From: a virus | Direction: 5' to 3' (one strand) | IMG/VR virus record: IMGVR_UViG_3300017971_000203 | Length of the DNA stretch: 64,000 nucleotides | In this document: positions 5,718-56,879 of the stretch, piece after piece | How positions within the stretch are numbered: the stretch's first letter is position 1 | Layout of the letters: each line of letters starts with the position of its first letter | Notes under the pieces: generated by a model | What the model was told of the DNA's origin: nothing | The model's input: only the letters and a program-made list of their open reading frames with translations | Databases searched by the model: none | Program-made: the position numbers and the translations under genes

Positions 5718-5748
5718 GTTCCCCTCCGTTGGAACAGGGTGTTGTGAT

Positions 5749-5931: not shown

Positions 5932-5939
5932 TGTCTCCG

Positions 5940-13954: not shown

Positions 13955-14028
13955 AAGGGCCGGAGGGACTTGAACCCCCACCCCCGAGGGTAGAAACCTC
14001 GTGCTCTGTCCTATTGAGCTACGACCCC
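13955..14028 (-). tRNA. tRNA-Arg(TCT)
   Basis: Cloverleaf GGGGTCG/CGGCCCT, D-arm GCTC..GAGC, anticodon arm CGAGG-TTTCTAC-CCTCG, T-loop TTCAAGT. Confidence 0.88.
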
Positions 14029-14462
14029 TGGATGCGGGGCTTCCACCCGCTACGTCGTGTCCTGACGACTTGGAATGCTCGAGCTGCAGCCGTGCCTCGG
14101 AATGAGGCGGGGAGCCAAACAGTCTCGAAATCGACCGCTCCCTCGGCATATCATGCGGGGGCCTATCTGTAGAACCCTCCCCCTTTCAACTTGGCTCTCC
14201 TTCCCAGGCTGGCCGGACAGGCGCGCTTTCACCACTCTGGCTACTTTGCGCCAACGAGCTCTGACAGCTCGTCTCCGGGTATGGGCAACTTTCCCCGGTG
14301 TCCAGCGCGAACACAGGTCGGATCCACACCCGCCACGCCTTACTGTGGTTCTTTCCATCTGCGTGACCGTCCCCGTCCAATCGCTGCCCGGGGGCTGGTT
14401 GCCCGGTCCAGAGTCCCCGGGAAGAGGTGTGCTTTTTTCATGCGGGCCGACCTCGAAAAAGA

Positions 14463-14534
14463 TGGACTGGCGTGGAATCGAACCACGGCTCCCTGGGCTT
14501 CAACCAAGCGCTCTACCGACTGAGCTACCAGTCC
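14463..14534 (-). tRNA. tRNA-Phe(GAA)
   Basis: GGACTGG/CCAGTCC acceptor, CTTGG-TTGAAGC-CCAGG anticodon arm, T-loop TTCGATT. Confidence 0.88.
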
Positions 14535-14864
14535 GCTCCCTGCTGCCTTCCAGCACGCCCTACTTCCGCAGCCAACGGATTCGGGAACGCCCCAGAAGAA
14601 CAGCCCCCAGCTTGATGCCTCCGGGGCTTGAGGCGGGGAATGGATCCCGATGGAGGGGGTTTCCCGGCCCCCTCCGTGCCCAACCCGATACATCAACCTT
14701 CCAGGCTCAGTGCACATCCCCTGGTAGGCGCTGGGCTTCCCTGTATCTTCCACGGCTCCCGAGCTGCCTGTGGTTTCAGCACAGGCCCGAGACTTCAGAC
14801 GTCGAGTGCTGTCGACTCCTGGACCCCGTCAGGGATCAGCACGTCCCTGGGGAGTACCGTGAAA

Positions 14865-14934
14865 TTGCGGAGGCGGGAGTTGAACCCACAAGATCCAGGT
14901 TATGAGCCTGGGCGCCGACCGTCGACTCTCCGCA
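14865..14934 (-). tRNA. tRNA-Met/Ile(CAT), shortened D-arm
   Basis: TGCGGAG/CTCCGCA, CCAGG-CTCATAA-CCTGG, T-loop TTCAACT; D-arm atypical. Confidence 0.75.
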
Positions 14935-15064
14935 GAACGGGAGGACCATTCCTCCCGTGTGTTTTTGCTCCAAACGTCACCCCGCGAAGCAGTGCGGGAC
15001 TGGAAAATTCCAGACTCCGACTCTACGATCAGGGATCCCCTCCAGAACTGACCGCAGGACCGAA

Positions 15065-15136
15065 CAACGGACCTGGGAGTCGAACCCAGTACCTCCGGCT
15101 GCAATCACCGGCGCGCAACCCTTACACCTGTCCGCT
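15065..15136 (-). tRNA. atypical tRNA (loop GATTGCA; nominal TTG/Gln)
   Basis: AGCGGAC/GTCCGTT acceptor, CCGGT/GCCGG anticodon stem, CTGGG-TTCGACT-CCCAG; lacks U33 and purine 37. Confidence 0.6.
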
Positions 15137-15307
15137 ATACGGGGGAATGACGGTCCCCCATGAACCGCTCCGCGAGAGTGCGCAGGAGTACACATGGCAT
15201 ACCCTTTTCGAACGGAGGTGAACCACCGAAGAGGTGAAACGCCTCCCTGCAGTCTGCCACCACAGGGAGGTCGTTTCAAGAGCGGCACCCTACCTCACGC
15301 TCTCCCA

Positions 15308-15674
15308 TGGAGATGGCGGGAGTTGAACCCGCGTCCGCAATGCTTCGGAATCGTGCTTCTACGTGCGTATCCTGTGTACGCTACCCCTCGAGACGCCCAC
15401 AGGCAGGCTCCTCTTCGGGAGGTCCAGCTCTGATTGTCGGAGACCAGCTCGCCCTGAACCAAGGCTCTCTGGCGTCGTATCCTGCTGATTGACGTCAGCA
15501 GCTCGAGCCGCAGGAGCTCTCGAGGCCGACGCGCTCACGCAGCTTGTGCGTAGGCGAATTGCTCAACATCGTCGTTGGCAGTTGTCGTTGTCTTCGCAGT
15601 TTGTCGAGGTCACGAAGACCACCCCCGGCACGCAACACGTCCCTCCATCACCACGTCGAAACCGTGTCATCCCC
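15308..15674 (-). ncRNA. ssrA: tmRNA, tag (A)ANDDVEQFAYAQAA*
   Basis: 5' GGGGATGACACGGTTTCGAC, 3' GACGCGGGTTCAACTCCCGCCATCTCCA, G3:U70; tag ORF 15579..15535. Confidence 0.95.
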
Positions 15675-15820
15675 AAAGCCCCGTGCGGGGATTGCACCCG
15701 CGCTTTGTCCGTTGGGACACGCAGACGGGGTAGGCTGCGCCAACTGCAGGTCCGAAGACCTTCGACCGGGACAAATGCCTGAAAACCCGGTCCCGCGGGC
15801 CAGCACCGCGGTTGTATGAT

Positions 15821-15977
15821 TTTGCTCGAAGATGATTGCCGGAAGGTGTGCAAAGCACATTCTATGTCTGATGCTCTGACCAACTGAGCTACCACTCCAT
15901 CTGTGGAGTGGGCAGGATTCGAACCCGCGACCGCCAGATTAACCGAAGTAACCCTCACGAGCTGCGCTCCGAGCAAA
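15821..15977 (-). ncRNA. YrlA-type Y RNA (Y7) with permuted tRNA-like domain
   Basis: Terminal stem TTTGCTCG/CGAGCAAA; T-arm GGTTCGAATCC precedes D-arm TAGCTCAGTTGGTCAGAGC; shared CGGAGCG..AGGGTTACTTCG..ACCTT..TCATCTTCG scaffold. Confidence 0.85.
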
Positions 15978-15983
15978 GAGGTT

Positions 15984-16058
15984 CCTCCCGAAGATGAGAA
16001 GCGGCAAGGTACGTTTCGTGTGCATCGTCGAAGTAACCCTGCCAGGCGCTCCGGGAAG
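15984..16058 (-). ncRNA. minimal Y-RNA-like RNA (Y6)
   Basis: Same scaffold with a short apical loop. Confidence 0.7.
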
Positions 16059-16062
16059 AGAG

Positions 16063-16145
16063 GGGACGCCCAGGGTGCGAGCCTGGTCTGTAGGGCGGAT
16101 CCGAAGACATATGCCCTGCCGTCCTACTACGGGCGGCCACGTCCC
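16063..16145 (-). ncRNA. degenerate tRNA-like cloverleaf
   Basis: GGGACGT/GCGTCCC closing stem with three internal hairpins including CCAGG-CTCGCAC-CCTGG. Confidence 0.45.
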
Positions 16146-16152
16146 AAGAGCA

Positions 16153-16226
16153 TCTCACGAGGATGAAGGCTGCCAAGGGCTGGGTTCGTTGAAAGCGAAG
16201 TACCCCTGGCAAAACGCCCCGTGAGA
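16153..16226 (-). ncRNA. minimal Y-RNA-like RNA (Y5)
   Basis: TCTCACGGGGCG..AGGGGTACTTCG..CCCTT..TCATCCTCGTGAGA. Confidence 0.7.
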
Positions 16227-16233
16227 AAAGGTA

Positions 16234-16350
16234 TCACTCGAAGATAATAGCGGAAAGGCTTTGCCCCTCCATCCGGGGCTGGCCGGCATAAGGGCGCCGG
16301 CCTTTGGGGTCGAACCAAACGAAGTAGCCCTGTCCTGTCGCTCCGAGTGA
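16234..16350 (-). ncRNA. Y-RNA-like RNA (Y4) with T-arm
   Basis: TCACTCGGAGCG..AGGGCTACTTCG..GGTTCGACCCC..TATCTTCGAGTGA. Confidence 0.72.
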
Positions 16351-16358
16351 AAAAGGGT

Positions 16359-16474
16359 CCCCGTGAAGATGATGGTAGGGAAAGTCAACGACTGCCTCCG
16401 AGGCTGCGCTGGAGTCGAACCAGCTTGGTCGTGGTTGTAAACCACGAAGTAACTCTCTCTGGCGCTCCACGAGG
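16359..16474 (-). ncRNA. Y-RNA-like RNA (Y3) with T-arm
   Basis: CCTCGTGGAGCG..AGAGTTACTTCG..GGTTCGACTCC..TCATCTTCACGGGG. Confidence 0.72.
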
Positions 16475-16482
16475 AGAAGAAC

Positions 16483-16611
16483 CGGTCGAAGATGAAAGTT
16501 GCCAAGGTGTCTGTACAAGGCGTTCCTCCGGTCGTTGCCGATCCGGTAATCCCATTGGGAGCCCCCCGAAGGGGTGGTGGAACGAAGAACCCCTGACGGC
16601 CGCTCCGACCG
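16483..16611 (-). ncRNA. Y-RNA-like RNA (Y2)
   Basis: CGGTCGGAGCG..AGGGGTTCTTCG..ACACCTT..TCATCTTCGACCG. Confidence 0.7.
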
Positions 16612-16613
16612 AA

Positions 16614-16758
16614 TAGACCCGTTGGGATTCGAACCCAACTCCCTTCCACGATGCTCCTACCCGGCACTTCCGTCCGGCCTCAGAGCACACTCACTGTTGC
16701 CCCTGTGAGCTGCTTCAGGGTTCCGGCCTGGGGAGGGGCACCCCATTCCGCAGGTCTA
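16614..16758 (-). ncRNA. tRNA-like RNA with enlarged body
   Basis: Closing stem TAGACCT/GGGTCTA and T-arm GTTGGG-TTCGAAT-CCCAAC; about 100 nt non-tRNA interior. Confidence 0.5.
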
Positions 16759-17054
16759 TGGAAGACATCGGAGTCGAACCGATCACCTCCCCTAAAGGAT
16801 CCAAGAACCGGGACGGCATCGAAGCCGACAACGCAATGCGTTCCACCTGGCGCGGTTCTGTTCAGGGCAGAAATTCAAGAGCCTCCTTGTACGTCGAAGC
16901 CATAGTGACTCCGGCTTTCTGATTGTTTTTTGGCGCAGTCCTTCGCATTGTGAAGACCGCCTTGCAGTGCGCTAGGTCTTCTGGTATCAGACAATCCACT
17001 TCGAAGGAAGGAAAACCAGCTCAGCAGGCGCTCTCCCAGCTGAGCTAGTCCCCC
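16759..17054 (-). ncRNA. tRNA-Ala-like shell with about 225-nt insertion at the anticodon
   Basis: 5' GGGGGACTAGCTCAGCTGGGAGAGCGCCTGCT, 3' GGAGGTGATCGGTTCGACTCCGATGTCTTCCA; G3:U70. Confidence 0.7.
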
Positions 17055-17059
17055 AAGGT

Positions 17060-17198
17060 TGTCCGAGGATAAAAATTGGGAAGGTACTATACGGCGCTCT
17101 TCCCCTGAGCTATCCCCTTCACAACGGAAGGGGAGCAGGATTCGAACCTGCGACCTCCGGCTCCGAAGGCGAAGTAACCCTCTCCGCCGCCCCGGACA
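17060..17198 (-). ncRNA. YrlA-type Y RNA (Y1) with permuted tRNA-like domain
   Basis: TGTCCGGGG/CCTCGGACA terminal stem; T-arm GCAGGTTCGAATCCTGC, then hairpin, then D-arm TAGCTCAGGGGAAGAGC. Confidence 0.85.
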
Positions 17199-17234
17199 TG
17201 ACATCAGCGCCGAAGCACCAACATCGTGACACCG

Positions 17235-21133: not shown

Positions 21134-21436
21134 GAGATCCCCCTCCGTTGGGATGTGGTGGTCAGGCGTTGCGGCCGGCGTCGGTCAGCAGGTAGTAGGT
21201 AGTCCAGTGGTGGCGCGTGTTACCATCGCGCAAGTATTCGACCCTGTAGTCGGTGTCGAGCCACAAGAGGAGACCCCGTCTACACAGCGCCTTGAGGGTG
21301 CCCGCGTGGAAAGCGTCGGTGCTGATGCGACCCGCGCGGCGCCTTTTGGCGAGCTCGAGGGCCTTCTTCATGTTTGGACTGAGCACTTTCACTGTGTCCC
21401 CCTCCGTTGGAACGTTCAGCAGGTCAACTGAGGCTA

Positions 21437-21464
21437 AGTATACGCCCCTCGACGCTAGTGTCAA
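21437..21464 (-). promoter_or_regulatory. class A promoter
   Basis: TTGACA-ctagcgtcgaggggcg-TATACT. Confidence 0.8.
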
Positions 21465-21493
21465 CAGGCGAATGAAAAAAGATCGATCTTTTT

Positions 21494-30707: not shown

Positions 30708-31082
30708 TCATGGCTTCGTGTCCTTGCAGTCGGGGTTGACGGCGTCGAACTTGATCACCTGACCCCCTGGATAGGTAAGCGTGACCTCCATGGACGGAGC
30801 GGGCCCGACCGGGTACCCGTCCAGCGTGACATACGTGACGTAGAGTCGGTTCTCCTCCGTCTGCGCTGCCAGGACGCAATAGCGGGCGTTGTACGGCTTA
30901 ACGTGGATGTAGGCGTCGCCAAGGTCCACAGCCATACCGTCCGCTTCGACCACCGAGATGGTCGCGTGTCCTGATTGCTTCTCCCGGTTGTTGCGCTTCC
31001 GCACACGATCGAGCTCCCACTGGGCAGAAAAGTCGCCGCCTTCGGCCAGCTTCCGCAGTCGTGCGAAGTCGTTGAACTTCAT
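30708..31082 (-). CDS. hypothetical protein with shared N-terminal tag
   Basis: FARLRKLAEGGDFSAQWELDRVRKR. Confidence 0.65.
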   Translation of the reverse strand: MKFNDFARLRKLAEGGDFSAQWELDRVRKRNNREKQSGHATISVVEADGMAVDLGDAYIHVKPYNARYCVLAAQTEENRLYVTYVTLDGYPVGPAPSMEVTLTYPGGQVIKFDAVNPDCKDTKP

Positions 31083-31594
31083 GTTTCAAGCTCTCGAAGT
31101 CGGAGGGGGTTGGTTTCGACTCTCTTCATGCCTTCCAGGAGCAGGTCCCGGAGCGCGTCGTACATCTCACTGTCCCGTTCCTGGAGCGCGTGCAGACAAC
31201 GCTTGCAGGGAGGTCTCTGGCCCTCCTTGGGCTCCCTCCCGGTACCCTTCCACCACGGCCAGCTCATGTCTGCGGGGACGAAGTGAATCCACTCCCCGTT
31301 GATGGGATCTCTCCTACACATCGTGAGGTGCTTTCCGCCGATATCGCACAGGTGTCGGGAGTGGTTGGATCGTCCGATCCACTTCAACTTCAGGCCCCGT
31401 TCCCAGGTCGCGTAGTGCACGAGGACCTCCCGGATTGCCATGGCCGAAGTGGCCAGGTCAGTCATCGCTCGGTCCAGGGAAGCCAGGGCGACCTCGTTCA
31501 CCTGGCCCCTGCGCACGAGCGTGATCAACCTGTAGGCCGCTTCCACATCCCCTTGCTTGGCCAATTCGAGCAGTCTCTCGTGCTCTCTCTTCAT
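31079..31594 (-). CDS. hypothetical protein with shared N-terminal tag
   Basis: HERLLELAKQGDVEAAYRLITLVRRG. Confidence 0.65.
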   Translation of the reverse strand: MKREHERLLELAKQGDVEAAYRLITLVRRGQVNEVALASLDRAMTDLATSAMAIREVLVHYATWERGLKLKWIGRSNHSRHLCDIGGKHLTMCRRDPINGEWIHFVPADMSWPWWKGTGREPKEGQRPPCKRCLHALQERDSEMYDALRDLLLEGMKRVETNPLRLRELET

Positions 31595-33016: not shown

Positions 33017-34336
33017 TTACACCTTCGTGAAAAGCCACTTGCGGGCGGCTTCTGCGATGCCCTTGGCGACTTGCTTCCACTCCAGTCCGGCCACTTCGAG
33101 CTCGGCTTCGCTCTCCTTGATGACGTCGGCGTTGAAGGCCTTCAGGAAAAGCCCGGTGCCGCGCTTCGTTGGAGCCTCGTCACCGAACACCTCCCCCAGG
33201 ATCTGCTCGCACCGGGCCTCGGTCACGAACATCTCGACGAAGCCTTCGATGCTCTCGGCCACCTCCGGTGCGATCTGGACCGGGGCCTTCTGCTGCACCA
33301 CAGAGTGCTTCTCACCCTTCGTCTTGAACATCAGCTCATGCGCCGGAAGGTACCACGGGAGTGGGTCACCGTTCCCACAGGACACTGGATACCAAACCAA
33401 CCCCTCGCCGACGCCCGAAATGCCGAACGTCTCCTTGACCCAGGTGTCCTCGGCCTCGACGCGCCTCACACAGCCCGCCATGAAACGAGCGTTCTTCTCC
33501 AGGGACTCGCTACTTCCGAAGTCAATCTCCACATAGGAGCTGTACCAGGGCAAGATGAACACGTCCGGGTGAGGCTGGGAACAGAGCGTTTCGATCACGC
33601 CCGGCTCCGTCACCATCTCCGCCTCGTGGTCGAAGCCAACCTGGACGCCGAAGACCACGAAGATCTTCCGGTCGAGCTTCGAAACTGCCATACCCCGCTG
33701 CACACCGGGGCCGCACCACTCTCCGAAGAACGTGAGAGGCTTCGGAGCACCGAGATACTGCTCCCAGTAGTCCCGGTTCTTTTCCACCCAGGCCCGGAAG
33801 CCCTTGTTGTCCTTCACCTCGGGCGTGAGGATACACTTACGGCTCTGCGCCGTAATCCGGCCACCGGCGATCTGAATCGCAGCGTTCGTCCCATGGAGCT
33901 TCACCTTGGCGCAGTAGGACACAACAGGAGGCTTGTACTCCGCACCGACGTGCTCCGCGATCCCCTGAAGGTTCCGAAGCACGTTGTGCAAGAGCTCGAT
34001 CGCTGGCCACTTCACGTGTCGAGGCTTCGTCTTCGGGGAGTAGTCGTCGTGACAGAAGAATTCCGTCAGGTCCGCTCCCTCCTCGTGGTCGGCCTTGTTC
34101 AGGATCATCCCGTAGGACGCCAGACCTCTGAACTTCGCTTTCTTCACCTCGGTACCGTCCCGCAGGATAGCACCCGGGAGCGCCACCGCGACGAGCTCCC
34201 CCTCCTCGTAGATGTGGTCCGAGTTCGCCACCACCTGGACCAACTTCGAATCACCCACAGCGAGGTCGTACACCCAGAGCGTGTCCGCGTTCGGGTGCTT
34301 CTTCCGGGTCTCTACTCGCATCGCTTTCACTGGCAT
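33017..34336 (-). CDS. Rnl2-type RNA ligase with N-terminal tRNA-binding OB-fold
   Basis: KHPNADTL..QVV..VAVALPGAIL..KFRGLASYGM (tRNA-binding domain); KLHGTNA, FFGEWCGPGVQ, GEGLVW, FKTKGEKH ligase motifs. Confidence 0.9.
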   Translation of the reverse strand: MPVKAMRVETRKKHPNADTLWVYDLAVGDSKLVQVVANSDHIYEEGELVAVALPGAILRDGTEVKKAKFRGLASYGMILNKADHEEGADLTEFFCHDDYSPKTKPRHVKWPAIELLHNVLRNLQGIAEHVGAEYKPPVVSYCAKVKLHGTNAAIQIAGGRITAQSRKCILTPEVKDNKGFRAWVEKNRDYWEQYLGAPKPLTFFGEWCGPGVQRGMAVSKLDRKIFVVFGVQVGFDHEAEMVTEPGVIETLCSQPHPDVFILPWYSSYVEIDFGSSESLEKNARFMAGCVRRVEAEDTWVKETFGISGVGEGLVWYPVSCGNGDPLPWYLPAHELMFKTKGEKHSVVQQKAPVQIAPEVAESIEGFVEMFVTEARCEQILGEVFGDEAPTKRGTGLFLKAFNADVIKESEAELEVAGLEWKQVAKGIAEAARKWLFTKV

Positions 34337-34925
34337 TGTCCATCTCCTTCTTGTTGGGGACACCCCCACCAACGCCCCGTGCTGCCCGGTGTACCCTAGT
34401 CTTCGGACCCGTCTTTCGGAGCGTACTTCTGAGCCAGCCGAGCCAGCTCCTCCCGTTCTTTCTGCTCCTTTGCCTCGGCCTGCTGCTTCTTGAGCTCCTC
34501 GAGCGAGGTTTTCCGAAGCGCCCTCACATCGAAGGTCCAGATCGCTCGGGCCTCGATGAGCTGCGCAACTTCGATGATGCTCTCATTCCGCGTCCAGCGG
34601 TCCCTATGTGCGCCGAGGAGAGACCATTCCGAGAAGTTGTAGTGCTCGAGCACGTAGGCCTCGGCCTCTTCCATGGTGTCCATCGGGAGCACTTCGAGGC
34701 ATTCGTTGCAGCCCCAGGGCGCGTGCTTGCACCCCTGGTCGCCCTTGATCCGGAGCAGAAACCGGTGCTCTGGCGGCTCGGGCTCAGGCGACTCGGACTC
34801 TTCTTCTTCTTTGGCCCGCATCTCTATCTGACCGATCCACTTCAGGATGCGCTTCAACCAGGTTCTGTCCTGGGTGCCCCAGTGGCCGAACTCCAGCTCT
34901 TCTTCGATCCGCTCCTCGAGCTCTT

Positions 34926-35429: not shown

Positions 35430-35956
35430 GGCCGAGCATCCTTGGAAGCCTGCACTGAGCTCCACACGAACTCCGCCTTGGCCCGGTTACATCCTAGCCT
35501 CTGCATGCACACAGCGACGCTTTTTTCGCGGTCGTCCCCGATCATGTCGAGGAGCTCCCTCCGGGACAGTCCGAACTCCGCCATACCTTCCTGAATGGAC
35601 GCCTCACGATCCTCCAGTTGGGCGACCACTTTCTTCATGTGCTCGTCGACGGGGTTCGAAACGCGGGGCACCTCGAGCTCCTGGACGAGCTCCGAGAGCC
35701 ACTCATCGTCAGGCAAAGTGTCCCGATAGCCGGCGACGATCTCTTCGGTGCTGTAACCCGGAGGAACGGCGCACCAGAGCGCCACTTTGGCCCGACTGAC
35801 ATCCCTATCGGTCTCGAGCCGCCAGACCTCTCCGGTCCACTCGGCGTAGCACAGGGCGTAGTTCGTGATCACCAGGGATTCGTTCATCTTCACGTAGGCC
35901 AACAGGCGAAACCCCGCCAGGGGCCGGTCCTTGAAGGTCTTCCAGTTCAGCTGCAT
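35426..35956 (-). CDS. hypothetical protein
   Basis: ORF track, AGGAG RBS. Confidence 0.6.
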   Translation of the reverse strand: MQLNWKTFKDRPLAGFRLLAYVKMNESLVITNYALCYAEWTGEVWRLETDRDVSRAKVALWCAVPPGYSTEEIVAGYRDTLPDDEWLSELVQELEVPRVSNPVDEHMKKVVAQLEDREASIQEGMAEFGLSRRELLDMIGDDREKSVAVCMQRLGCNRAKAEFVWSSVQASKDARP

Positions 35957-36540
35957 TCTTCTGTCTCCTTTTCTTTCAGAGCCCTCTGAAGGGTGCCCCT
36001 CGGGATGCCTAGGAGCTTGCTCACTTTCCGTTGGGAGTAGCCCTTGCCAAAGAGCTCTTCCACGGCTTCTAGGTCGGTCTCTACCCTGGGACGCCCGACG
36101 TGTGTCCCGTTGGCCTTAGCGTGCTGCATACCGGCCTTGACCCGCTCCCTGATGGTGTCGCGTTCGAACTCGGCGAAGGCGGCCACGATGGTGAAGAACA
36201 TCTTTCCGGCGGCACTGGTCGTGTCGATGGTCTCCCGGAGGGACACGAAGTCGACGCTGTGCTCCTGGAAGGTCTCCAAGGCGGTCACGAGCTGCCGTGT
36301 GCTCCGGGCGAAGCGGTCGAACTTCCACACAAGGACTACGTCCAGCTTCCCGGTGATCGCATCCTTCATGAGCTTGTCGAGCGCCTTCCTGGAGGCCTTC
36401 GCACCGGAGACACCTTCGTCGACGTACTCCCTGTGCTTCCAGCCGTTGAGCTCCACGTACTTGCGGAGCTCCTCAAGCTGCATCTCGACGCTCTGATCCT
36501 TCGTGGACACCCTGGCGTAGATCCCGGCCCGCTTTTTCAT
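35947..36540 (-). CDS. small serine recombinase (resolvase/invertase family)
   Basis: YARVST.DQ, DEGVSG, VWKFDRFARS, IDTTSAAGKMFF..AEFER..IRER..AG, C-terminal HTH. Confidence 0.95.
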   Translation of the reverse strand: MKKRAGIYARVSTKDQSVEMQLEELRKYVELNGWKHREYVDEGVSGAKASRKALDKLMKDAITGKLDVVLVWKFDRFARSTRQLVTALETFQEHSVDFVSLRETIDTTSAAGKMFFTIVAAFAEFERDTIRERVKAGMQHAKANGTHVGRPRVETDLEAVEELFGKGYSQRKVSKLLGIPRGTLQRALKEKETEECS

Positions 36541-38000: not shown

Positions 38001-39206
38001 TCACCAGCTTCCATCGCGAACGGTCTCTGTGTCGACCACCTTCGGGGTGCCGCAACTGACGACCTCCTCGACCGGGGCGCTCGAATCGTCCTGTTGACCC
38101 TCTAAGCCCTTGTCCTTGTCCATCTCGGAGATGGTCTTCACCTTGCCCAGCGTCTCGGAGGCCTCCACGTCACCAAGGTCCTTGTCGTAGAGGTCGAACC
38201 AGGGGATCCCGGCCGCGAAGTACTCGTCCTTGCCGATGGGGCTCGGGGGCGGCGCTTCGCCGGTGATCTGCTGGTACATCTCCGCGTTCACCAGGTGGAC
38301 GAACACGCGCTGCTTGCAGTCCTGGTCCCAGACATGGACACCGTGGGGGTCGGGATAGACCTGCTGACGCATCGAGCCGCCCGCACCCATCCCCATCAGA
38401 GCCGCCTTCGGGGCGTTCTCCTGGAAGCTCCTCTTCGCGTGTCTCCGAATCACCGTGGGCTTGATGGCGTGCCTCATGAAGCCCTTGGCAACGCCTTCAG
38501 GGGCTCCCGCAGGCGCAGTGCTGCACAGGACCGCGCTCTCGAGGGTGTGCCCGCCGCTGGTCTTCACTTCCCCGGAGTAGCTCTCGAAGCCGTCGTCGCC
38601 GTCCCAGCCGAGGCTCTGCCCGGAGGCTCCGCCAGCAGTCGCAAAGCCGCCCTTCGCGACACCGCGGGAGCGCGTGCCTCTGCGCTTCTTGGGCTTCGGG
38701 AAGTGCTCTCGCTTGCCCGGGTAGACGGCCAGCTGCAGGCCGCCGTGCTTCTCCTCACCCGTGACCTGACCTTCCACGGTATAGCCCATGCCCAGGGGCA
38801 TCGCCACGAACTGGCTGACCTTGCCCTCTTCGGACTTGATGCCGTCGATCCACTTCTGGGGCGGAGCCACGAGGTAGTCCTGCTTGTCCTCGCTGAGACC
38901 GTCCTTCCAGGGCTCACCCGTGATGGCGTCGATCTTCCCGACGCCAACCTTCACGGCGCAGGGCGCGTGCGTGCGCAGTCCGAACTGGATCCACATCGCT
39001 TCGCGCTGGTGGAGCGGCAGGAACACGCCGCCCTTCTCCACCCAGCTGGGCGGCACCTTGTCCTTGTAGTCGTCGATGCGCTTGAGAGGGAAGCGTCCGA
39101 CCGAGCGTGGCAGGGGGTAGGTCTTTCCGTCCTCCGGGAGCCGGAAGGTTCTGTGGAAGACCACGATCAGGTTCTCTGTGTGCAGTTCATTGCCGATGAC
39201 TTTCAT
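38001..39206 (-). CDS. conserved hypothetical protein
   Basis: FHRTFRLPEDGKTYPLP..GRFPL..GGVFLPLHQREAMW..QFVAMPLGMGYTVEGQVTG; start overlaps the end of cassette 14. Confidence 0.8.
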   Translation of the reverse strand: MKVIGNELHTENLIVVFHRTFRLPEDGKTYPLPRSVGRFPLKRIDDYKDKVPPSWVEKGGVFLPLHQREAMWIQFGLRTHAPCAVKVGVGKIDAITGEPWKDGLSEDKQDYLVAPPQKWIDGIKSEEGKVSQFVAMPLGMGYTVEGQVTGEEKHGGLQLAVYPGKREHFPKPKKRRGTRSRGVAKGGFATAGGASGQSLGWDGDDGFESYSGEVKTSGGHTLESAVLCSTAPAGAPEGVAKGFMRHAIKPTVIRRHAKRSFQENAPKAALMGMGAGGSMRQQVYPDPHGVHVWDQDCKQRVFVHLVNAEMYQQITGEAPPPSPIGKDEYFAAGIPWFDLYDKDLGDVEASETLGKVKTISEMDKDKGLEGQQDDSSAPVEEVVSCGTPKVVDTETVRDGSW

Positions 39207-41640
39207 GTCGTCTCCTCGTAGTGGCGGGGCCTCCGCCCCTGCAAACTCGAAAGCTCAAGCGGGTTACGAAGTCGTCTGTGGCCGCAAAGGAAGAGCGGTG
39301 CCCCGAGTGGAACTGGATATCGAGACCGCCGCGAAAGGTGCTGCCCATGACGATTCTGTGTGTGTCGTCCCAGTAGTGGACCCGGATGACATCTTCAGGA
39401 TCCGGGGCCTCAGTGAACTCGAGAGCCGAGAAGCCCTGAGACAGCTCTCTCCAGCGGAACGTGCCCACATCACCCCCGTGCGATCCGGAAGCCGACATCG
39501 CTGCCTGCTCCGATCTGGTGTTCGTCGAGGCGTCCATCGTGCTCGAGGAAGTCTCGGTCGTGGGTGCGCACGTAGATGACATTGTTGTAGCAGAAGCCTT
39601 TGAGGAGGGACTTGTAGGAGGCGGTCCGGGGCCTCGGTCCGTTCCCGAGGGGCCAGGGGTTCGGGATCTCAGGCCAAAAGTGGCGGCGATCACCCGTAGC
39701 AGATCCGGAAGCCGACGATGTCGTGAGGACTCCCTGGGTAGAAGTTCTCGTCGTGGTAGTAGTTGGTCCGCTTGTGGAGAGTGCCGTCGCTTCTGTTCCG
39801 GTCCCACCAGGACCCGCCCCGGAGACTCCAAAAGGGCGGGGCTCACCCCCAGCAGATCCGGAAGCCCGTGAAGAAGATGCCACGTGGTCGGAGGCTCCCG
39901 TTCCGTCGTCCGAGATGGATCCGGAGAGCGTTCGTGAAGCGGGAGTAGCACTCGCCTCTTCGAACGCGGCGCCGAAAGGGCGCTTACCCTCTGCAAACCC
40001 GGAATCCGATGATGTAGAGCTTTCCTGTGATTCTCCATACCGTGCTGCATCTGCCGAGGGGTTGGAAGTCCTCTGAGAACCACGAGTTCCCTCGGCACCT
40101 GCTAAAGGGCCCCTACCCCCAGCAGATCCGGAAACCTTTGCCCCAGGAGTTGTCGGCGAAAGGTTCGGAGTCACGCTTCGCGACGCTGGCGACACCTCTG
40201 AAGAGGCTGCTGGCGAAGCCTCGCCCGGTCTTGGCGACAGGGAAGACGAAGTGTCGAAAGGGCGCTCAAGTACCTCCGTCGGATCGGACGATCCGGAATC
40301 CGAGCAGCTTGTCGGACATGGTTGTGAGCCCGGTTCCCCGGGCGTTGAGACGGAGGGAGACCGCGGAGCCGCCCCCTCGACAGATCGGGATCCAGACAAA
40401 GGGCGGCGCTCACCCCCAGCAGATCCGGAAGCCGGCGCTGGTCCAGTCCCCGAACTCACGCCCCTGTCTTCGGCGGGATGCGGAAGGCTGGAGTCGCATC
40501 CAGGACCCCGCTCGGACGACCCGAAAGGGACAGCGTCCTCCTCATCCTCGGCAGATCCGGAATCCGCGCCGCTGGTGGGCCCAGCTTCGTCGTGGGGAGA
40601 AGCACTTCCCAGACAGTCGCACGCGCGCGTAGACGGCGTCGAAACACCCTCCCCGGGGCTTGCCATACGGCTCCCGCCAGGGCTCCCCGGAAAAGGGTGA
40701 TCACCCCCAACAGATCCGGAAGCCGATATGATGGGCCCGGGTCCACATGGTGCGGGGGGTCTTTCTCCCGGGTCGCAAATTGTGGGGAGGGTACGGGTGT
40801 GCTGCATCGAGCCATGCGCCCCCTCGGAGGAAGCGGTCCCGAGGAAAGGGTCAGGAGTGTCCTCCTCGACAGATCCGGAAGCCCCAGCGGCCGGCTGCTC
40901 CTCTTCCGTATCCTCTGATGGAGAGCCGTCCGAGAGCGGGGGTAAAGAACTCGATGAGGTAGATCCCCCGCTCCCCGAGTCGAAAGGGCGATCAACCTCG
41001 GGCGATTCGAAAACCCTTACCAAATGAGGAGGAGGCGAAGGGCTCGGATGACCGCTTCGCGAGGCTGGCGACGCCCCTGTAGTAGACGCTGGCGAAGCCC
41101 CGCCCGACCTTGGCGAAGGGGCTCGGTCCTCGAGCGACCCGGTCGGCCTCTGTGGTCTCTCCCCAGGGACGAAAGGGCGGCGATTACCCCTGGGATCGGA
41201 CGATCCGGAAGCCGAGGAGCGTCCCCTTGTACTCGGGGTAGCTCCCAGGGCCTCGGTGGGCGATCCGGGCTCCGTGACCAGAGGAGAGTTCCCTGAACAA
41301 GCGTCCGCCTCGGAAGTTGGCACTTCGAAAGGGCGCCGTCTACCCCCGGCAGATCCTGAACCCTGGTCGAACGGTGTAGAAGACGTAGGTCTCGAGCTCG
41401 ATGTACCAGGACTTGAAGCCCTCGGGGTGTTGGTTCCCGAGCCACTCGCGGCGGGACAATCGGAGGGGTGGGTCGGGGTAGAAAGCGCCGCGGAGAGTGA
41501 GGGATCGCCGTGCCCAAAAGGGAGCTCAACCTCGGCAGAGCCGACGCCCTCGGGGTCCGGCTCGGGCGTCTGGGACGAGGCTGAGTCTGGAGAGGGGCAG
41601 GGGCCAGTCGAGAGAGGAAGTCGTTCGATCTCGAAATTGA
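39187..41640 (-). repeat. array of about 15 alternative C-terminal cassettes, 12 headed by CCCTTTN -1 slippery heptamers
   Basis: Heptamers at 41516-22, 41327-33, 41171-77, 40982-88, 40844-50, 40691-97, 40523-29, 40397-403, 40256-62, 40103-09, 39974-80 and 39830-36; each -1 frame ends GFR(I/V)xxG-like then stop. Confidence 0.92.
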
Positions 41641-42505
41641 CCTCCGCGGGCTCTCCGCGCTGGTGCCGTTTCTTCGACGTCACCTGCCTCATGGGAGGGT
41701 CCGGCTTCTGCTCCGCCATAGTGATGTCGGGCTTCGCGTGCTTCATGTGTTCGGCGTATTCGTCCCAGCACCACTCCCAGACGTTCCCCAGGCAGTCGTA
41801 GAGGCCCCACCTGTTCGGAGCCAGCTGCCGAACCGCATGAGTCCGACCATCTGAGTTCTGGTCAAACCAGGCGATCTCTTCCAGAGACGCCTCGCGCCAC
41901 TCGACTTCGCCACCACACCGGTCGCACACCCCAATCTCGTACCGCGCACCGTCGCTGCCCGCCCTGGCGGCGTACTCCCACTCCACCTCGGACGGGATCC
42001 GGAAGCCCGGGCCCTCCTTCCACAGGTAGCCCTGCTGGCGGTCCCCGATGTACGCGGGCGGTAAACCGCAGCGCTCCGAGAGCGCGTTGCAATACTCGAT
42101 GGCGTCGTACCAGCTCACGCACTCCACCGGGCGCTCGAGAGGATTGTCGCCCTGCTGGAAGTGGCTGGGGTTCTTCCCCATCACCGCTGCGTACTCGGAC
42201 TGCGTGACCGGCGCAGAAGCCATCCAGTACGTGTTCTCGATCGTCACCTCGATCTGATGCTCGTTCCGCCACCGACCATCTTCGTCCGGCGGACTGCCCA
42301 ACACGTCCGTACCGGCAGGGATCTCCACCAGCTCCGGGATCACAACGCCCTCCAGACGTGCGAGGTCAAGGCGCGCGAGCACGTCCCCTCCCCGGCTGCG
42401 AAGCCGCAGGAACTCCCGGAGAGCCGCCTCGTCATTGTCCACCGCCAGCTTCCCCAAGCGCTCGAGCTGCCGCACGTTGGTCGTTGATTCTCTCGTTGTC
42501 TCCAC
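39470..42505 (-). CDS. FGE-sulfatase (SUMF1/C-type lectin fold) protein with frameshift-selectable C-termini
   Basis: GTG start after CCAACGGAGGGG; PVTQSEY, NPSHF, PVECVSWYDA..YCN.LS, FRIPSEVEWEYAARAG, PNRWGLYDCLGNVWEWCWD; RGGSW..GFR ending absent until the cassettes. Confidence 0.92.
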   Translation of the reverse strand: METTRESTTNVRQLERLGKLAVDNDEAALREFLRLRSRGGDVLARLDLARLEGVVIPELVEIPAGTDVLGSPPDEDGRWRNEHQIEVTIENTYWMASAPVTQSEYAAVMGKNPSHFQQGDNPLERPVECVSWYDAIEYCNALSERCGLPPAYIGDRQQGYLWKEGPGFRIPSEVEWEYAARAGSDGARYEIGVCDRCGGEVEWREASLEEIAWFDQNSDGRTHAVRQLAPNRWGLYDCLGNVWEWCWDEYAEHMKHAKPDITMAEQKPDPPMRQVTSKKRHQRGEPAEVNFEIERLPLSTGPCPSPDSASSQTPEPDPEGVGSAEVELPFGHGDPSLSAALSTPTHPSDCPAASGSGTNTPRASSPGTSSSRPTSSTPFDQGSGSAGGRRRPFEVPTSEADACSGNSPLVTEPGSPTEALGATPSTRGRSSASGSSDPRGNRRPFVPGERPQRPTGSLEDRAPSPRSGGASPASTTGASPASRSGHPSPSPPPHLVRVFESPEVDRPFDSGSGGSTSSSSLPPLSDGSPSEDTEEEQPAAGASGSVEEDTPDPFLGTASSEGAHGSMQHTRTLPTICDPGERPPAPCGPGPIISASGSVGGDHPFPGSPGGSRMASPGEGVSTPSTRACDCLGSASPHDEAGPTSGADSGSAEDEEDAVPFGSSERGPGCDSSLPHPAEDRGVSSGTGPAPASGSAGGERRPLSGSRSVEGAAPRSPSVSTPGEPGSQPCPTSCSDSGSSDPTEVLERPFDTSSSLSPRPGEASPAASSEVSPASRSVTPNLSPTTPGAKVSGSAGGRGPLAGAEGTRGSQRTSNPSADAARYGESQESSTSSDSGFAEGKRPFGAAFEEASATPASRTLSGSISDDGTGASDHVASSSRASGSAGGEPRPFGVSGAGPGGTGTEATALSTSGPTTTTTRTSTQGVLTTSSASGSATGDRRHFWPEIPNPWPLGNGPRPRTASYKSLLKGFCYNNVIYVRTHDRDFLEHDGRLDEHQIGAGSDVGFRIARG

Positions 42506-42522
42506 CGTCCCCTCCGTTGGTC

Positions 42523-42822
42523 TCAGTTCTGAAGCCGCTGTCGCTGGCCCTTGAACCACAAGCCCGAGTCCTGCTCCTTTTGGTTGTCGTAGCTCTCCAC
42601 GTCCCAGTCGGCGTGGTAGAACGTGACCCGCACGAGGTTCTGCTCCTGGTGATCCAGGTTGAGCGGAAGGTCGCGCCACGAGATGCGGCACCCATACGGG
42701 TCCTTCGCCAGACGCTCATTGATAGCCACGATCACCGGACCCAGGTCCCGCTCCTTGTTCTTCTTCCACTGCTCACGCGCACTCACTGGCGTGATTGGCT
42801 CGACTTTCTGGTTGCTGCCCAT
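42523..42822 (-). CDS. hypothetical protein
   Basis: AAGGAG RBS. Confidence 0.65.
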   Translation of the reverse strand: MGSNQKVEPITPVSAREQWKKNKERDLGPVIVAINERLAKDPYGCRISWRDLPLNLDHQEQNLVRVTFYHADWDVESYDNQKEQDSGLWFKGQRQRLQN

Positions 42823-43062: not shown

Positions 43063-43469
43063 GTCATACCTCCCGTCACCCTGATGTCACACCAGAGTAG
43101 GACAACAGTCACATAACTATATCGGTCGTTCCCCGGTTGTCAAGGCCTATGTGTCGGGGAGCTCGTCTTCTCGGTAGAAACGCCACGTAGGCATCCCGTC
43201 CGGGTCGAGCGCATTCATTACAAGATAGGCCAACGCCGTCGCACGGCTGACCTTCTGAACCCCATGCACCACGCAGAGATACTTCGCCAGAAGATCCAGG
43301 CGATCAAGGACCTCCGGCAGCAAGCGAAAAGAGGTCGGCTTCGTATTGCTCATCAGCAAGACTCCTGTTAGGGTGAGTGAGCTACATCGGTGTAGTACAT
43401 ACAAAAACGTACCCGATCCGAAGCGGGAAGGGAAGGGGTATCACCGAAAGAAGGGGAGCTTGTAGGAAG

Positions 43470-45368
43470 ATGGCGACACAACGGCGGAAACTGTTCCCGG
43501 CCCTGATTGTCGATCTGACCCCCATCGAACTGGCTGCGAAGGGCCTGGTTTCGACGCATACGTTCGGCCAGCAGTTCGAGTTGCAACCAACCACTCTCAC
43601 CGCATCCGCGGGCGCGAACTATTTCCCCGCGGTTCGGACCACAGCCAAGTGCAGGGACAAGCGCTACGCCTACCCCAGGGATATGCGTTGCTACCTGGCC
43701 AGCCACAAGTTCCACACGAAAGAGGGGGAGGAACCTGTGGAACTGCCCCAGGCGCTCTTCAATGACCCCTACGACCCCCCGGGAGGGTTCAAGACCCGCC
43801 TGGACTGGAACCCGAGCTCCTGGCGCGTAGGCGACCCGTTCCCGAAATTCGACTCGGGACCTGACCTGGAAGGCTGCGAAGAACTCGAGGGGGACGAGCT
43901 CCTGAAGAAGGCGGTGGAACTTCTGGACTTCGGCTACTTCCTGAAGGCCACCGGCAAGCTCCTTGGACGGTCTCCCACAGTGCTGCGCGAACTCCTGATA
44001 GACGCCGGCGAATGGCCCCGGAAAGACCTCGGAGGCCAGAAGACTCGTAAACGGGGCGTCGTCGAAGAACCAGAGCCGGAAGAGCCGGAGCCCGAAGCAG
44101 CTGCCGAAGAGCCGCAACCGGAGCCAGAGCCGGAGCCGGAAGAGCCAGAAGCCGAGGTCGTGGATGAAGACGAAGACCTCGGAGAAGACTTCAGAGACCT
44201 AGGAGAGCCCGAGTTCAGCCCCGAAGGCATCCTGACCCTCTATTTCGAGAATCACCCCTTCCAGCTGACCGATAGCAATACACACCCCTTCGTCATCAAA
44301 GATGCTTGTGATTACCTGGAGATCCAGAACGCCCGCCAGGCTGCCGATCGGCTAGACAAGGATGATGTATGTTCAACATATATCATCGACTCGCTGGGCA
44401 GACCTCAGAAAACGCTCACCTGCAACTTCCCCGGCTACCTGGATCTCGTGATGGGGGCTCGGTCTTCGGACCGTGCACGCCCCTTCCAGCGGTGGGTAAC
44501 ACACACCGTTCTGCCCACTCTTGCCAAACTGGGGACGTACACTCTGGGACAAGAACAGGCCGCTCATGGCTCGCCGCTGCCGGGGGACCTCGAGCGCCTC
44601 TTCATGCAGCAGGCAGAGATCAACGTCCAACAATCCCGGATCAACGCCCAGCACGCCGAGACCATCTCCACCCTGGAAGAGCTGGTCGGGAAAATGATGG
44701 GGGGCATCGACGACTTCGTGAAGAGTGCTTCGAAGCGCTTCGAAGAGGTCGAAGAACGAACGGACCAAGCTGAAGAGCGTATTTCCAACCTGGAAGAAAC
44801 CCTGAAGAACGCCCTGGAAGACCCGTTCCTCGGAAACGACGCTGCGAACCAGGACAGGCACATCTTGAACGCGATCGCCAAGGCCAGGGGCATGGCCATC
44901 TTCTTCGGCACCAGCGACGGTGCCCGGATCGAAAGACAACTCCGAATTTGTCCCGAGGGCTCTCCCGAACACGACAAGCTGAAGTCCGAGAAGTGGAAAA
45001 AAGCCAGACCCCACATCAAAGGTGTATACACGGCCTTCTACCGCTACCTGCTCCGCCATTCCCGGAACCCTGTCATCGACGTGTGCGCCCGCAAACGCAG
45101 AGATGTGGAGCTCGTCAAGAAAGCCAACGGCGCCAAGGCCGCCAAACGGTTCGAAGGGATCGCTCGTCTGATCGACTACATCAGAGTCGAAGAGATGCCG
45201 GAAGCGTTGACCCTCCTGGTTCGCTCCTGTCTGGAAGAAGGGTTCTATCCCGTGCTGTTCCACGAACAACCCCGCATCCGGGAACTGATACGGGATATCC
45301 GGTACAAGAAAGAAAACAAACCGCGTGGTTCCAACGGAACGCCGCCGGAACCGCCCCCGAGCCCCTGA
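43470..45368 (+). CDS. BRO-N domain (antirepressor-like) protein with coiled coil
   Basis: PFVIKDACDYLEIQNARQAADRLDKDD..DSLGRPQ..ARPFQRWVTHTVLPTLAKLGTY. Confidence 0.85.
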   Translation: MATQRRKLFPALIVDLTPIELAAKGLVSTHTFGQQFELQPTTLTASAGANYFPAVRTTAKCRDKRYAYPRDMRCYLASHKFHTKEGEEPVELPQALFNDPYDPPGGFKTRLDWNPSSWRVGDPFPKFDSGPDLEGCEELEGDELLKKAVELLDFGYFLKATGKLLGRSPTVLRELLIDAGEWPRKDLGGQKTRKRGVVEEPEPEEPEPEAAAEEPQPEPEPEPEEPEAEVVDEDEDLGEDFRDLGEPEFSPEGILTLYFENHPFQLTDSNTHPFVIKDACDYLEIQNARQAADRLDKDDVCSTYIIDSLGRPQKTLTCNFPGYLDLVMGARSSDRARPFQRWVTHTVLPTLAKLGTYTLGQEQAAHGSPLPGDLERLFMQQAEINVQQSRINAQHAETISTLEELVGKMMGGIDDFVKSASKRFEEVEERTDQAEERISNLEETLKNALEDPFLGNDAANQDRHILNAIAKARGMAIFFGTSDGARIERQLRICPEGSPEHDKLKSEKWKKARPHIKGVYTAFYRYLLRHSRNPVIDVCARKRRDVELVKKANGAKAAKRFEGIARLIDYIRVEEMPEALTLLVRSCLEEGFYPVLFHEQPRIRELIRDIRYKKENKPRGSNGTPPEPPPSP

Positions 45369-51322: not shown

Positions 51323-51871
51323 ATGGACTACCAGAAGGCGAACGAGGTCCTGGGGGACATGAGAGAGTGGCTGCAGGAGGCCCGTGATATGGAAAGGCTC
51401 AAGCGCTTGGCTGCTATGGGAGACACCCAGGCGAAAAGAGAGCTCGAGAAGGCCCGAGAGCGCGGACGCGCCGAGGTCTTCGCCGATCTGCTCGAAGCAG
51501 AGATGAAGAAGTTCAAGGCGAGCGGCTTCTCCGTGGACATCGTCCAGGGCTACAGGGGGAAAAAGAGGGCCGCTTCCACCAGTGCCTGGGTGTCCATCAT
51601 CCCCAGAATCGGACGGGTGGACGTCGACTACTACCCGCAGAAGAACGAGCTCCGACTGCTCCGCTGGGGCGCCACCATACCAAATTCCTTCCCGAAGAGC
51701 GTCTGGACAAAGGCGGGGTGGACCGTAAACAACCCCTACGGAAGCTCCAGACCAGCCGGACCTATCTACGCCGACGGATCCATCCGCATCTCGGGCATCC
51801 AGACCAAACGAGCCGCCGTCAAAGCCGCCAGGAAGAACCTCGAGAAGCTCGCAAAGGCCGTCGGAACCTGA
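51323..51871 (+). CDS. hypothetical protein with shared helical tag
   Basis: GGAGGGGG RBS; MERLKRLAAMGDTQAKRELEKARERG. Confidence 0.75.
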   Translation: MDYQKANEVLGDMREWLQEARDMERLKRLAAMGDTQAKRELEKARERGRAEVFADLLEAEMKKFKASGFSVDIVQGYRGKKRAASTSAWVSIIPRIGRVDVDYYPQKNELRLLRWGATIPNSFPKSVWTKAGWTVNNPYGSSRPAGPIYADGSIRISGIQTKRAAVKAARKNLEKLAKAVGT

Positions 51872-55104: not shown

Positions 55105-55987
55105 CACAACCTCCACGTGGTCGACAGTGAAGAGCATAGTCCAAGGCAAAGACCGTGTCAGCAACAGAAGGCCCTCAACGGCTTGAACAGGAGTACCCCT
55201 TCTGTACGTACACAACTGTCCCGGCGGGTGGGAGTGGGGTGAACCCACGGGAGAACCCCTGCGATAGACTCGATATAAGTCAGTCGGATTGTCAAGGTTC
55301 CAGATCCTGGATCTCATTCTGTCGGGAGCAGAGCTCGGGGAGGGAGGAACCACGACAGGTTCCCTGCTCCATATAGGTCAGTCGGATTGTCAAGGTCCGA
55401 GATCACTGATCAAATTTCGGAGGGTGCGGGGCCGAGAATAGGAGAGGAAAGCTTCACGAAGCGGAGAGATCTGGCAGGAGGCCCCCTACCCTAATCTTGA
55501 GGGTCGGGAAAGTGTTGCACTGCGCGGACTTGCGGGACCGCGGGAAGTTGGCGTAGTTCGCCATTTTGCGGCGGCCGGAAAGTGGCGAATACCAACAGTT
55601 TCCGCGGGCTTAGGTCGCAACAGTTCAACCGTGTTCACAACTGCAGGACCGTGCCAGGGAGCTGGACTAAGATCGTGCCAGGTTCGGTGTGTGGAGAGAG
55701 AAAAGTGCATGCGTTGGGGGTGGCCCAAAAGGGTGCCCCTCGGCGGGTCTCGGATCCGACGCCATAGCTCAAGGCTGCCTGGCCCACAAGGCCGGCCCAG
55801 AAGTGGCCCACAAGGTAATGGTTCTGGGCCGTCTGTATGTAGGTCCGGCTCGCACCCAGCTTGGTCACTGCTTGGTCGCTCCCCCATAGGAGCCCGTACC
55901 CCCAATCTTGGGGATGCTGGTCTAGTTGCTCCTCGGACCCGGTTCGGTTACTGTCGTTCCATACTACTGTAACCCAGGGGGCGAATC

Positions 55988-56285: not shown

Positions 56286-56879
56286 CTAGAGGTCCTCGGG
56301 GTTGGGCAGCATGACGGCCTTGGTCTTGCCCCCTGCCTTCCACTGGACCTTCTTCCGCTTGGCTGCACGGCGGCGCTCTGACTCGGCCTTACGCAGCTCC
56401 CTCTCCTCGGGCGTGACCGGCCATCTCCGCTGGTAGTCCGGGCTTCTCACGCGCCGTAGCCAGGCGTAGCAGATGCTTTCCAGGTCCCCCATGTCGAGCT
56501 CGCCTTCCTTACACAGGGTGCGGACTTCCACGTTCGTGACAGCCAGGAGCTCCGCCACCATGGCGATGCCATACCCCCACAGCTTCCGGGCCCCCACATT
56601 CGGCCCTGCTGGGAGGTCGATTTCGTTGACATGGACCTTCGCCCGGACCTTCCGAAAATTTTCCAACGAAAAAATGTGTCCCGAATCTCGGGCTTTCCCA
56701 CCCTTCTGCACTACATTCCCACCCTTCTGCACTACATTCTCACCCTTCTGCACTACATCACCGACCCCTTGCACTACACCCCCACCCTGTCCGGTCTCTT
56801 CCTGAGACACCTGTTTTGACCCTTCCAGGTGGTCTGTCTCCCTGGTCTCATCCCCTTCCACGGTGCGCCTTTCGTCCAT
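56286..56879 (-). CDS. HTH-like protein with NVVQKGG repeats
   Basis: GYGIAMVAELLAVTNVEVRTLCKEGELD; 21-bp tandem repeat. Confidence 0.6.
   Translation of the reverse strand: MDERRTVEGDETRETDHLEGSKQVSQEETGQGGGVVQGVGDVVQKGENVVQKGGNVVQKGGKARDSGHIFSLENFRKVRAKVHVNEIDLPAGPNVGARKLWGYGIAMVAELLAVTNVEVRTLCKEGELDMGDLESICYAWLRRVRSPDYQRRWPVTPEERELRKAESERRRAAKRKKVQWKAGGKTKAVMLPNPEDL
56700..56780. repeat. 21-bp tandem repeat (about 4 copies)
   Basis: CCCTTCTGCACTACATTCCCA-like units. Confidence 0.85.

Follow-up and report, generated by a model that had tools for sequence, protein, structure and literature searches.

Candidate serial -1 frameshifting in an uncultured phage gene: a C-type-lectin-fold domain followed by twelve putative alternative C-terminal cassettes

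The virus record IMGVR_UViG_3300017971_000203 of IMG/VR (128,887 nt, 69% complete) carries on its minus strand a gene in which a truncated formylglycine-generating enzyme (FGE)/C-type-lectin (CLec) domain is followed by twelve short segments lying in the -1 frame, each behind a C CCU UUN heptamer. Coordinates of this array gene refer to the window, a stretch of 64,000 nt of the record. The analysis presented here indicates that the gene is probably decoded by serial -1 ribosomal frameshifting stimulated by internal Shine-Dalgarno (SD) elements, yielding about 13 proteins with different binding ends. This reading is favored because it explains together the phase of the heptamers, the SD elements, the open hydrophilic 0 frame and the conserved -1 peptides. 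It had been put forward in an initial annotation made from the sequence alone, and the selection on both frames, the upstream SD elements and a divergent second array now argue for it.

Organization of the array gene

The 0 frame is free of stop codons from 42691 to the stop codon at 39472-39470, and its likely start is the GTG at 42505, preceded by the SD element GGAGGGG (dG -10.0). The linker of about 700 open codons that the initial annotation placed behind the FGE domain checks against these coordinates and stays open to 39470. The constant N-terminal part matches PF03781 over residues 57-261 (129 bits, E 2e-37, above the cut-off), a match that covers only positions 3-204 of the 255 in the profile. 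The closest solved structure is TvpA (2Y3C), a target of a diversity-generating retroelement (DGR), at the level of the sequence (E 1.6e-26) as well as by Foldseek (E 5e-11). Judging from these alignments, the N-terminal part is a constant FGE/CLec domain without its last strand (beta5, with the GFR motif) and without the variable loop that precedes this strand. In the FGE-type targets of DGRs, the variable region is C-terminal and ends in an invariant beta5 strand paired with beta1 (PMC5006420); the GFR motif of the cassettes presumably corresponds to this strand.

The twelve CCCTTT sequences are all found in the C-CCT-TTN phase, as had been claimed, and each starts at the upper coordinate of its row in Table 1. 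Of the 32 CCCTTT on the minus strand of the whole 129-kb record, 12 fall within the 1.83 kb of the array. Each -1 segment encodes 39-61 aa and terminates at a stop codon after the motif GFR[IV]xxG, in some cases with a few extra residues. These peptides had been proposed to supply the missing C-terminus of the FGE domain. A hidden Markov model (HMM) was built from the tails of 313 ordinary FGE proteins and each cassette was compared with 100 shuffles; C1-C12 each score above at least 98/100 shuffles (3-25 bits), in line with this proposal, and the same DNA read in the 0 and +1 frames gives at most 4 bits. C5 alone matches PF03781 positions 214-253 (E 0.0015). Catalytic formylglycine-generating enzymes are marked by a pair of cysteines (CxxxxC) after the RGGS motif; by inspection, this pair is present in none of the cassettes.

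The full 0-frame product was modeled with AlphaFold2 (AF2). Residues 6-255 are folded, with a predicted local distance difference test (pLDDT) score mostly of 80-94, and almost all of residues 256-1002 fall below 50. The last two blocks, which form the terminal GFR segment, reach 77 and 88 and contain a strand. This model is consistent with a docking of the GFR segment across the linker. A complex prediction combining the N-domain with C1 gave a score of 0.02, a value that weighs neither for nor against docking.

The 3' end of the array presents a particular situation. The in-frame C13 and the orphan C14 described in the initial annotation are both present, and a one-base insertion at 39681 now accounts for them. 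C13 was most likely once a thirteenth shifted cassette, with C14 as the in-frame end, until this insertion put C13 in frame, since C13 possesses a linker-like shadow frame, as do C1-C12, and this frame runs on into C14. The next frame of C13 is open, with a proportion of S/P/T/D/E of 0.58 vs 0.41 expected (P 4e-4); C14 and the N-domain are devoid of such a frame. Two A/T-CCT-TTN sites, possibly due to chance, are located inside C14 at 39338 and 39290 (minus strand), in phase with a 69-codon open reading frame (ORF; 39473-39264), the beginning of which overlaps with the stop of C13, and a -1 shift at either of them would enter the C14 tail. At the other end of the array, the degenerate C0 is not supported as a cassette: a slip site is absent upstream and 19/100 shuffles score equally well. 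The previous count of about 15 alternative C-termini is accordingly replaced by 13, of which 12 are shifted products and the last is the full-length protein.

Selection on both reading frames

Statistics of the sequence show that selection acts on the peptides of the -1 cassettes as well as on the linker of the 0 frame. The synonymous codons of the cassette peptides were resampled with the codon usage of the phage, taken from 13 hand-picked genes. Against this null, 6.3 stop codons are expected in the 0 frame of the array and none is seen (P 5.5e-4). A shuffle of the codon order gives P 0.09 for the same open frame; the signal therefore resides in the choice of the codons and not in their order. 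For Leu and Val, the cassettes use CTC+GTC 45 times vs 3 times for CTG+GTG, when the corresponding ratio in the other phage genes is 445:543 (Fisher P 3e-12). The linker encoded by the 0 frame contains no Trp (9 expected) and 39 Arg (78 expected), and is enriched in Asp, Glu, Pro and Ser (z 4.9-6.5). It is acidic like the N-terminal part (25 K/R, 46 D/E), in contrast with the strongly basic cassettes (107 K/R, 33 D/E). The periodicity of the GC content at third codon positions shifts to the -1 frame inside the array only.

The paralogous cassettes C3 and C9 offer a direct comparison of the two frames. They are 72% alike, with differences located mostly at third codon positions, and the ratio of synonymous to non-synonymous codon differences is 14:12 in the -1 frame and 5:23 in the 0 frame (P 0.01). 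Between these paralogs, the -1 frame is thus, by this measure, the conserved one.

Candidate frameshift signals

The predicted pairing with the anti-SD sequence, 4-20 nt upstream of the sites, has a mean dG of -10.7 kcal/mol. Over the array the average is -5.0, and for the 39 CCCTTT situated elsewhere in the record the median is -3.5 (P 5e-7 vs the array sites). The enrichment, with a peak at -14 to -7, is still significant when the encoded residues are kept fixed (synonymous resampling, P 0.006). The SD-like elements are positioned 6-10 nt upstream of the sites, and three of them are weak (dG -6.3 to -7.5). Most are formed by the G-stop ending of the preceding cassette; before sites 5, 7 and 9, a GGAGG is instead part of an extension of the peptide or continues beyond the stop. 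The strength of the SD elements shows no significant correlation with that of the hairpins. The enrichment of SD elements at a fixed spacing points to the ribosome as the slipping machine. An internal SD 9-14 nt upstream is known to promote -1 shifts in dnaX and in many insertion sequence (IS) elements (PMC5009743), and West Nile virus uses C CCU UUU as a -1 shift site (PMC11797035). A slip from CCU to CCC would, it may be supposed, better pair with tRNA-Pro(GGG).

Table 1. Features of the array gene and copies of its helical module (window coordinates; for each slip site, the interval runs from the first base of CCCTTT, at the upper coordinate, to the end of the cassette)
Feature	Position	Strand	Details	Basis
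0-frame ORF, 1011 aa	39470..42505	-	N-terminal helical module, truncated FGE/CLec domain, ~700-aa linker, in-frame C13	ORF analysis, AF2 model
Constant N-part	41750..42505	-	Three-helix module (aa ~4-51) and FGE-type CLec domain	Profile search, structure match, AF2
Spacer	41526..41749	-	Read in 0 frame; -1 frame is 'C0', ending RLCRG-stop; gives SD of site 1	Inspection, SD scan, HMM
Slip site 1, C1	41340..41522	-	CCCTTTT; SD spacer 7	
Slip site 2, C2	41184..41333	-	CCCTTTC; SD spacer 9	
Slip site 3, C3	40992..41177	-	CCCTTTC; SD spacer 9; paralog of C9 (71% aa)	
Slip site 4, C4	40851..40988	-	CCCTTTC; SD spacer 7; strong 3' hairpin, z -3.5	
Slip site 5, C5	40701..40850	-	CCCTTTC; GAGGAGG, spacer 10	
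Slip site 6, C6	40542..40697	-	CCCTTTT; SD spacer 6	
Slip site 7, C7	40410..40529	-	CCCTTTC; GAGGAGG overlapping and following C6 stop, spacer 7	
Slip site 8, C8	40266..40403	-	CCCTTTG; SD spacer 9	
Slip site 9, C9	40113..40262	-	CCCTTTC; GGAGGT, spacer 10	
Slip site 10, C10	39984..40109	-	CCCTTTA; SD spacer 6; 3' hairpin, z -2.6	
Slip site 11, C11	39843..39980	-	CCCTTTC; weakest SD, spacer 7	
Slip site 12, C12	39690..39836	-	CCCTTTT; SD spacer 9	
Former slip site 13	39676..39683	-	CC-A-CTTTT, extra A at 39681; upstream SD dG -13.3	
C13	39470..39679	-	Present in-frame end	
C14	39187..39468	-	FGE-tail-like segment, +1 frame, orphaned	
Shared helical module	42353-42490	-	Copy in the FGE protein	
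Shared helical module	31475-31594	-		
Shared helical module	30955-31082	-		
Shared helical module	51380-51490	+		
Shared helical module	record C1 ~116,850	-	

A divergent second array

The initial annotation had suggested a search for related arrays of phased CCCTTT, and this search was fruitful. A DNA pattern scan of metagenomes returned, besides 13 chance matches, the contig Ga0180438_10018154 (L008), in which six CCCTTT are in phase and accompanied by SD elements (P 1e-4), a further in-phase site being the variant C CCC CCU. Its 0 frame is open over 513 codons, for 5.8 stops expected (P 4e-4), and its -1 frame encodes cassettes ending in G[FLI]R..G/R, with an in-frame tail at the end. The cassettes of this contig are not close to C1-C12. 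An additional in-phase CCCTTTT with an SD is observed at 7161 (minus strand) of L008, 42 nt past the previous site and within one cassette, so that a single -1 peptide would have two entry points. A homology between C14 and the terminal piece of L008 was considered and dropped (P 0.26, not significant).

The other searches were less productive. The same type of scan gave nothing or only chance matches among viral contigs, and 9 matches, all due to chance, among genome contigs. A profile search with the linker junction recovered only the query. Protein searches identified a sole close relative, P0011 (Logan SRR29850983), in which an N-part 62% identical is followed by a Ser-rich frame with repeated PF.

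Proposed mechanism and alternative explanations

According to the proposed mechanism, ribosomes would start at the GTG and synthesize the constant FGE/CLec domain minus its last strand. At each of the 12 sites, the internal SD, provided in most cases by the end of the previous cassette, would pair with the anti-SD of the 16S rRNA while tRNA-Pro and tRNA-Phe or tRNA-Leu are positioned on C CCU UUN. A fraction of the ribosomes would then slip by -1, translate one basic cassette of 39-61 aa and terminate, and the remaining ones would read the same nucleotides in the 0 frame as an acidic, Ser/Pro-rich disordered linker leading to the next site. Those passing all the sites would end at the in-frame C13. 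Each cassette would dock into the constant domain, the intervening linker forming a loop, so that one mRNA would give rise to about 13 proteins of 388-1011 aa (44-105 kDa) bearing different binding faces. As an illustration of how the efficiencies might play out, a shift of 10% per site would attribute 10% of the ribosomes to C1, 3% to C12 and 28% to the full-length product. The array would grow by duplication of cassettes, as suggested by C3 and C9, and a one-base insertion at a site, as in site 13, could shorten it.

Several observations weigh against this mechanism. The SD spacers measure 6-7 nt at 6/12 sites, below the published 9-14 nt, those of the other six being 9-10 nt. Slippage at C CCU UUN on bacterial ribosomes was not found in the literature. 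A downstream hairpin is not a general feature of the sites (mean z -0.5), z being below -2 at just three of them. The common phase of the sites does not constitute independent evidence, because the units duplicate in multiples of three. The cassettes had also been described as RGG...GFR tails: the GFR endings hold, but a clear RGG-like motif is recognized in about half of the cassettes only, and the others score weakly (C1 and C11, 3-5 bits). The C-terminal confidence of the AF2 model depends on the underlying alignment, where GFR is matched with its homologs. Finally, the L008 contig stops short of the N-domain, and P0011, assessed through its protein sequence, did not beat shuffles (4 hits vs a shuffle maximum of 5).

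The most serious competitor, which is nevertheless improbable, is a silent store of cassettes serving DNA recombination of the vls, pilS or shufflon type, through deletion or gene conversion. Direct repeats are found at the cassette ends (a 36-nt family; only direct repeats were searched), and the duplication of C3/C9 and the insertion at site 13 testify to DNA changing over time. A small serine resolvase (PF00239 with a helix-turn-helix; 35947-36540, minus strand) that could perhaps operate such a store is encoded further downstream, 3 kb from the array. Against this explanation, the N-domain has no CCCTTT in an acceptor phase, and a deletion from one CCCTTT to another would preserve the phase, so that a -1 shift would still be required. 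Neither the open hydrophilic 0 frame nor the SD elements are predicted by a cassette store. The co-orientation of the cassettes, all carried by one strand, prevents their fusion by inversion, and no tyrosine recombinase (PF00589) was found in the 69% complete record. In addition, an identical sequence is present over 39187-42559 in a second assembly (Logan SRR6963591, L039), which may share its sample with the record. This identity also makes it unlikely that the array is the artefact of one assembler.

A slippage of the RNA polymerase, adding one base at C3T3-4, would generate through edited mRNAs the same ladder of proteins with the same selection on both frames, and heteropolymeric slippage sites are known to exist. 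It is a very improbable alternative, as the runs are of 3-4 nt only, when bacterial slippage involves about 9 A or T (PMC5009743), as the base following CCCTTT varies, all four letters being represented, and as the SD elements at fixed spacing indicate the ribosome. The array could also be a relic in which only the full-length product, or the first one or few sites, matter and the rest is recently dead or used at a low level. C0, site 13 and C14 are indeed degenerate or orphaned, several cassettes are weak fits to the FGE tail, and the SD elements gain no significant strength from the first site to the last (rho -0.30, P 0.35). Such decay is as improbable as polymerase slippage when confronted with the 12 intact heptamers and their SD elements, two frames free of premature stops, the purifying selection between C3 and C9 and the identical layout of the divergent L008. 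The least credible possibility is that the cassettes are separate small genes initiated at the SD elements and completing the domain in trans, or that the -1 frame is joined by read-through of its stops. A spacing of 6-10 nt is also typical of initiation, but ATG, GTG and TTG are absent between each stop and its CCCTTT, which bears out the earlier remark that no cassette begins with a start codon. Moreover, the terminating stops are a mixture of TGA, TAG and TAA, which the recoding of one stop codon would not join, and neither process needs a slippery heptamer.

Comparison with known systems

The elementary step of serial frameshifting is known, and the architecture appears to be new. In the SD-stimulated -1 programmed frameshifting of E. 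coli dnaX and of IS3/IS911, an X XXY YYZ heptamer in phase and an upstream internal SD likewise lead to an early end, but these cases comprise one site and two products, usually with A AAA AAG and a 3' structure (PMC5009743). The array has 12 serial C CCU UUN, each with its own homologous cassette, spacers of 6-10 nt and no general 3' structure. Gene 10 of T3/T7, Lactobacillus A2, the Ig-like tails of Listeria PSA/A118 and lambda G/GT also derive several proteins with a common N-part from frameshifting (PMC5009743). In these phages, a single shift adds an optional domain; in the array, the shifted piece would complete a fold, with a dozen mutually exclusive alternatives. Many recoding sites are likewise found in Euplotes, in the mitochondria of protists and yeasts (10-12 shifts) and in two-shift retroviruses, but they restore one product (PMC5009743).

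The DGRs with FGE-type CLec targets (TvpA 2Y3C, Mtd; PMC5006420) vary the same C-terminal region of the same fold, ending in beta5. The array would require no change of the DNA and would offer a small fixed repertoire in parallel instead of mutagenesis between generations; its cassettes are of unequal length, and their differences extend over the whole sequence. As the initial annotation had supposed, the array would function without a reverse transcriptase: no PF00078 match was obtained in the record (69% complete), and no pair of near-identical template and variable repeats with adenine differences was found in the window or in the rest of the record. Shufflons and silent cassettes (R64 pilV, tail-fiber inversion in Mu/P1, Borrelia vls) similarly combine a constant N-part with stored C-termini, but they rearrange DNA and expose one variant per genome, whereas the array contains co-oriented cassettes in one ORF behind translation signals. 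The mutually exclusive exons of Dscam also involve a choice among homologous modules, but by splicing; in the array, each shift would be an exit that picks a module. Literature searches, most subscription journals being outside their coverage, brought up no account of a series of frameshift exits excluding one another.

Gene setting and other features of the phage

The record encodes a T4-gp23-like major head protein, a prohead protease, a portal protein and a terminase, and the closest capsid match among cultured phages is 35%, so the phage has no near cultured relative. The array gene, which is the sole FGE gene of the record, is about 65 kb or more away from the head genes. No fragments of head proteins were detected in the cassettes by comparison with PHROGs, with the phage's own head proteins and, for C1 and C3, with cultured phages. 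The helical N-terminal module (RLxxLAxxGDxxAxxEL) that begins the FGE protein recurs at the start of at least four further, unrelated proteins of the same phage (Table 1); weaker matches are seen near window positions 10,500 and 28,250. No family was found for this module, and no match in the protein atlas exceeded 0.82. Within the frameshifting mechanism, the products may constitute a cytoplasmic panel of binders for molecules of the host or of rival phages and not the tip of a tail fiber, a role that stands evenly balanced with its negation. It is proposed because the neighbors are small non-structural genes, because the array protein shows neither a signal peptide nor a membrane stretch and has no tail context, and because the helical module is shared.

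Other features were recorded in the window. Upstream of the FGE operon and in opposite orientation lies the gene of a protein with a Bro-N domain (43377-45368, plus strand). An RNA ligase (phrog_548; 33017-34372, minus strand) has an extra N-terminal domain resembling a tRNA-binding OB fold. A cluster of tRNAs (Arg-TCT, Phe-GAA, Met-CAT; 13954-17200, minus strand) includes a transfer-messenger RNA at 15308-15674 with the tag ANDDVEQFAYAQAA, and the tRNA-Phe of the phage could affect slippage at UUC/UUU. Several degenerate tRNA-like units of this cluster share GGAGCG...GGGTTACTTCG (repeat family D13, 16029-17195). Dispersed repeats between genes fall into two families, CCCCTCCGTTGGAA with AGTATA...GTGTCAA, and ...GGATTGTCAA; they are probably phage promoters with an SD on the minus strand (1909-2018, 2588-2704, 5450-5982, 21377-21486; 12781, 24904, 28306, 37673, 51045, 55269-55432). 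A 21-nt tandem repeat in about 5 copies occupies 56674-56778.

Significance

The known variation of prokaryotic binding proteins alters DNA, through DGRs, shufflons or gene conversion, and the known phage frameshifts produce two products. If the proposed mechanism is true, about 13 products made in parallel from one gene would be to translation what mutually exclusive exons are to splicing. Such a gene is reported by gene callers as one long low-complexity protein, which would keep it hidden in databases. With its 12 C CCU UUN sites, which differ in SD strength and spacing, the array provides a natural series for the testing of frameshift rules, a 600-codon dual-coding region whose two frames are both selected, and a test case for the completion of a fold across a linker of 75-700 residues. 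On the evidence of these sequences, it is likely that the array belongs to a new class of purely translational diversity generator, which would provide each infected cell with a fixed panel of C-type-lectin-fold binders across a lineage of uncultured phages of large size.

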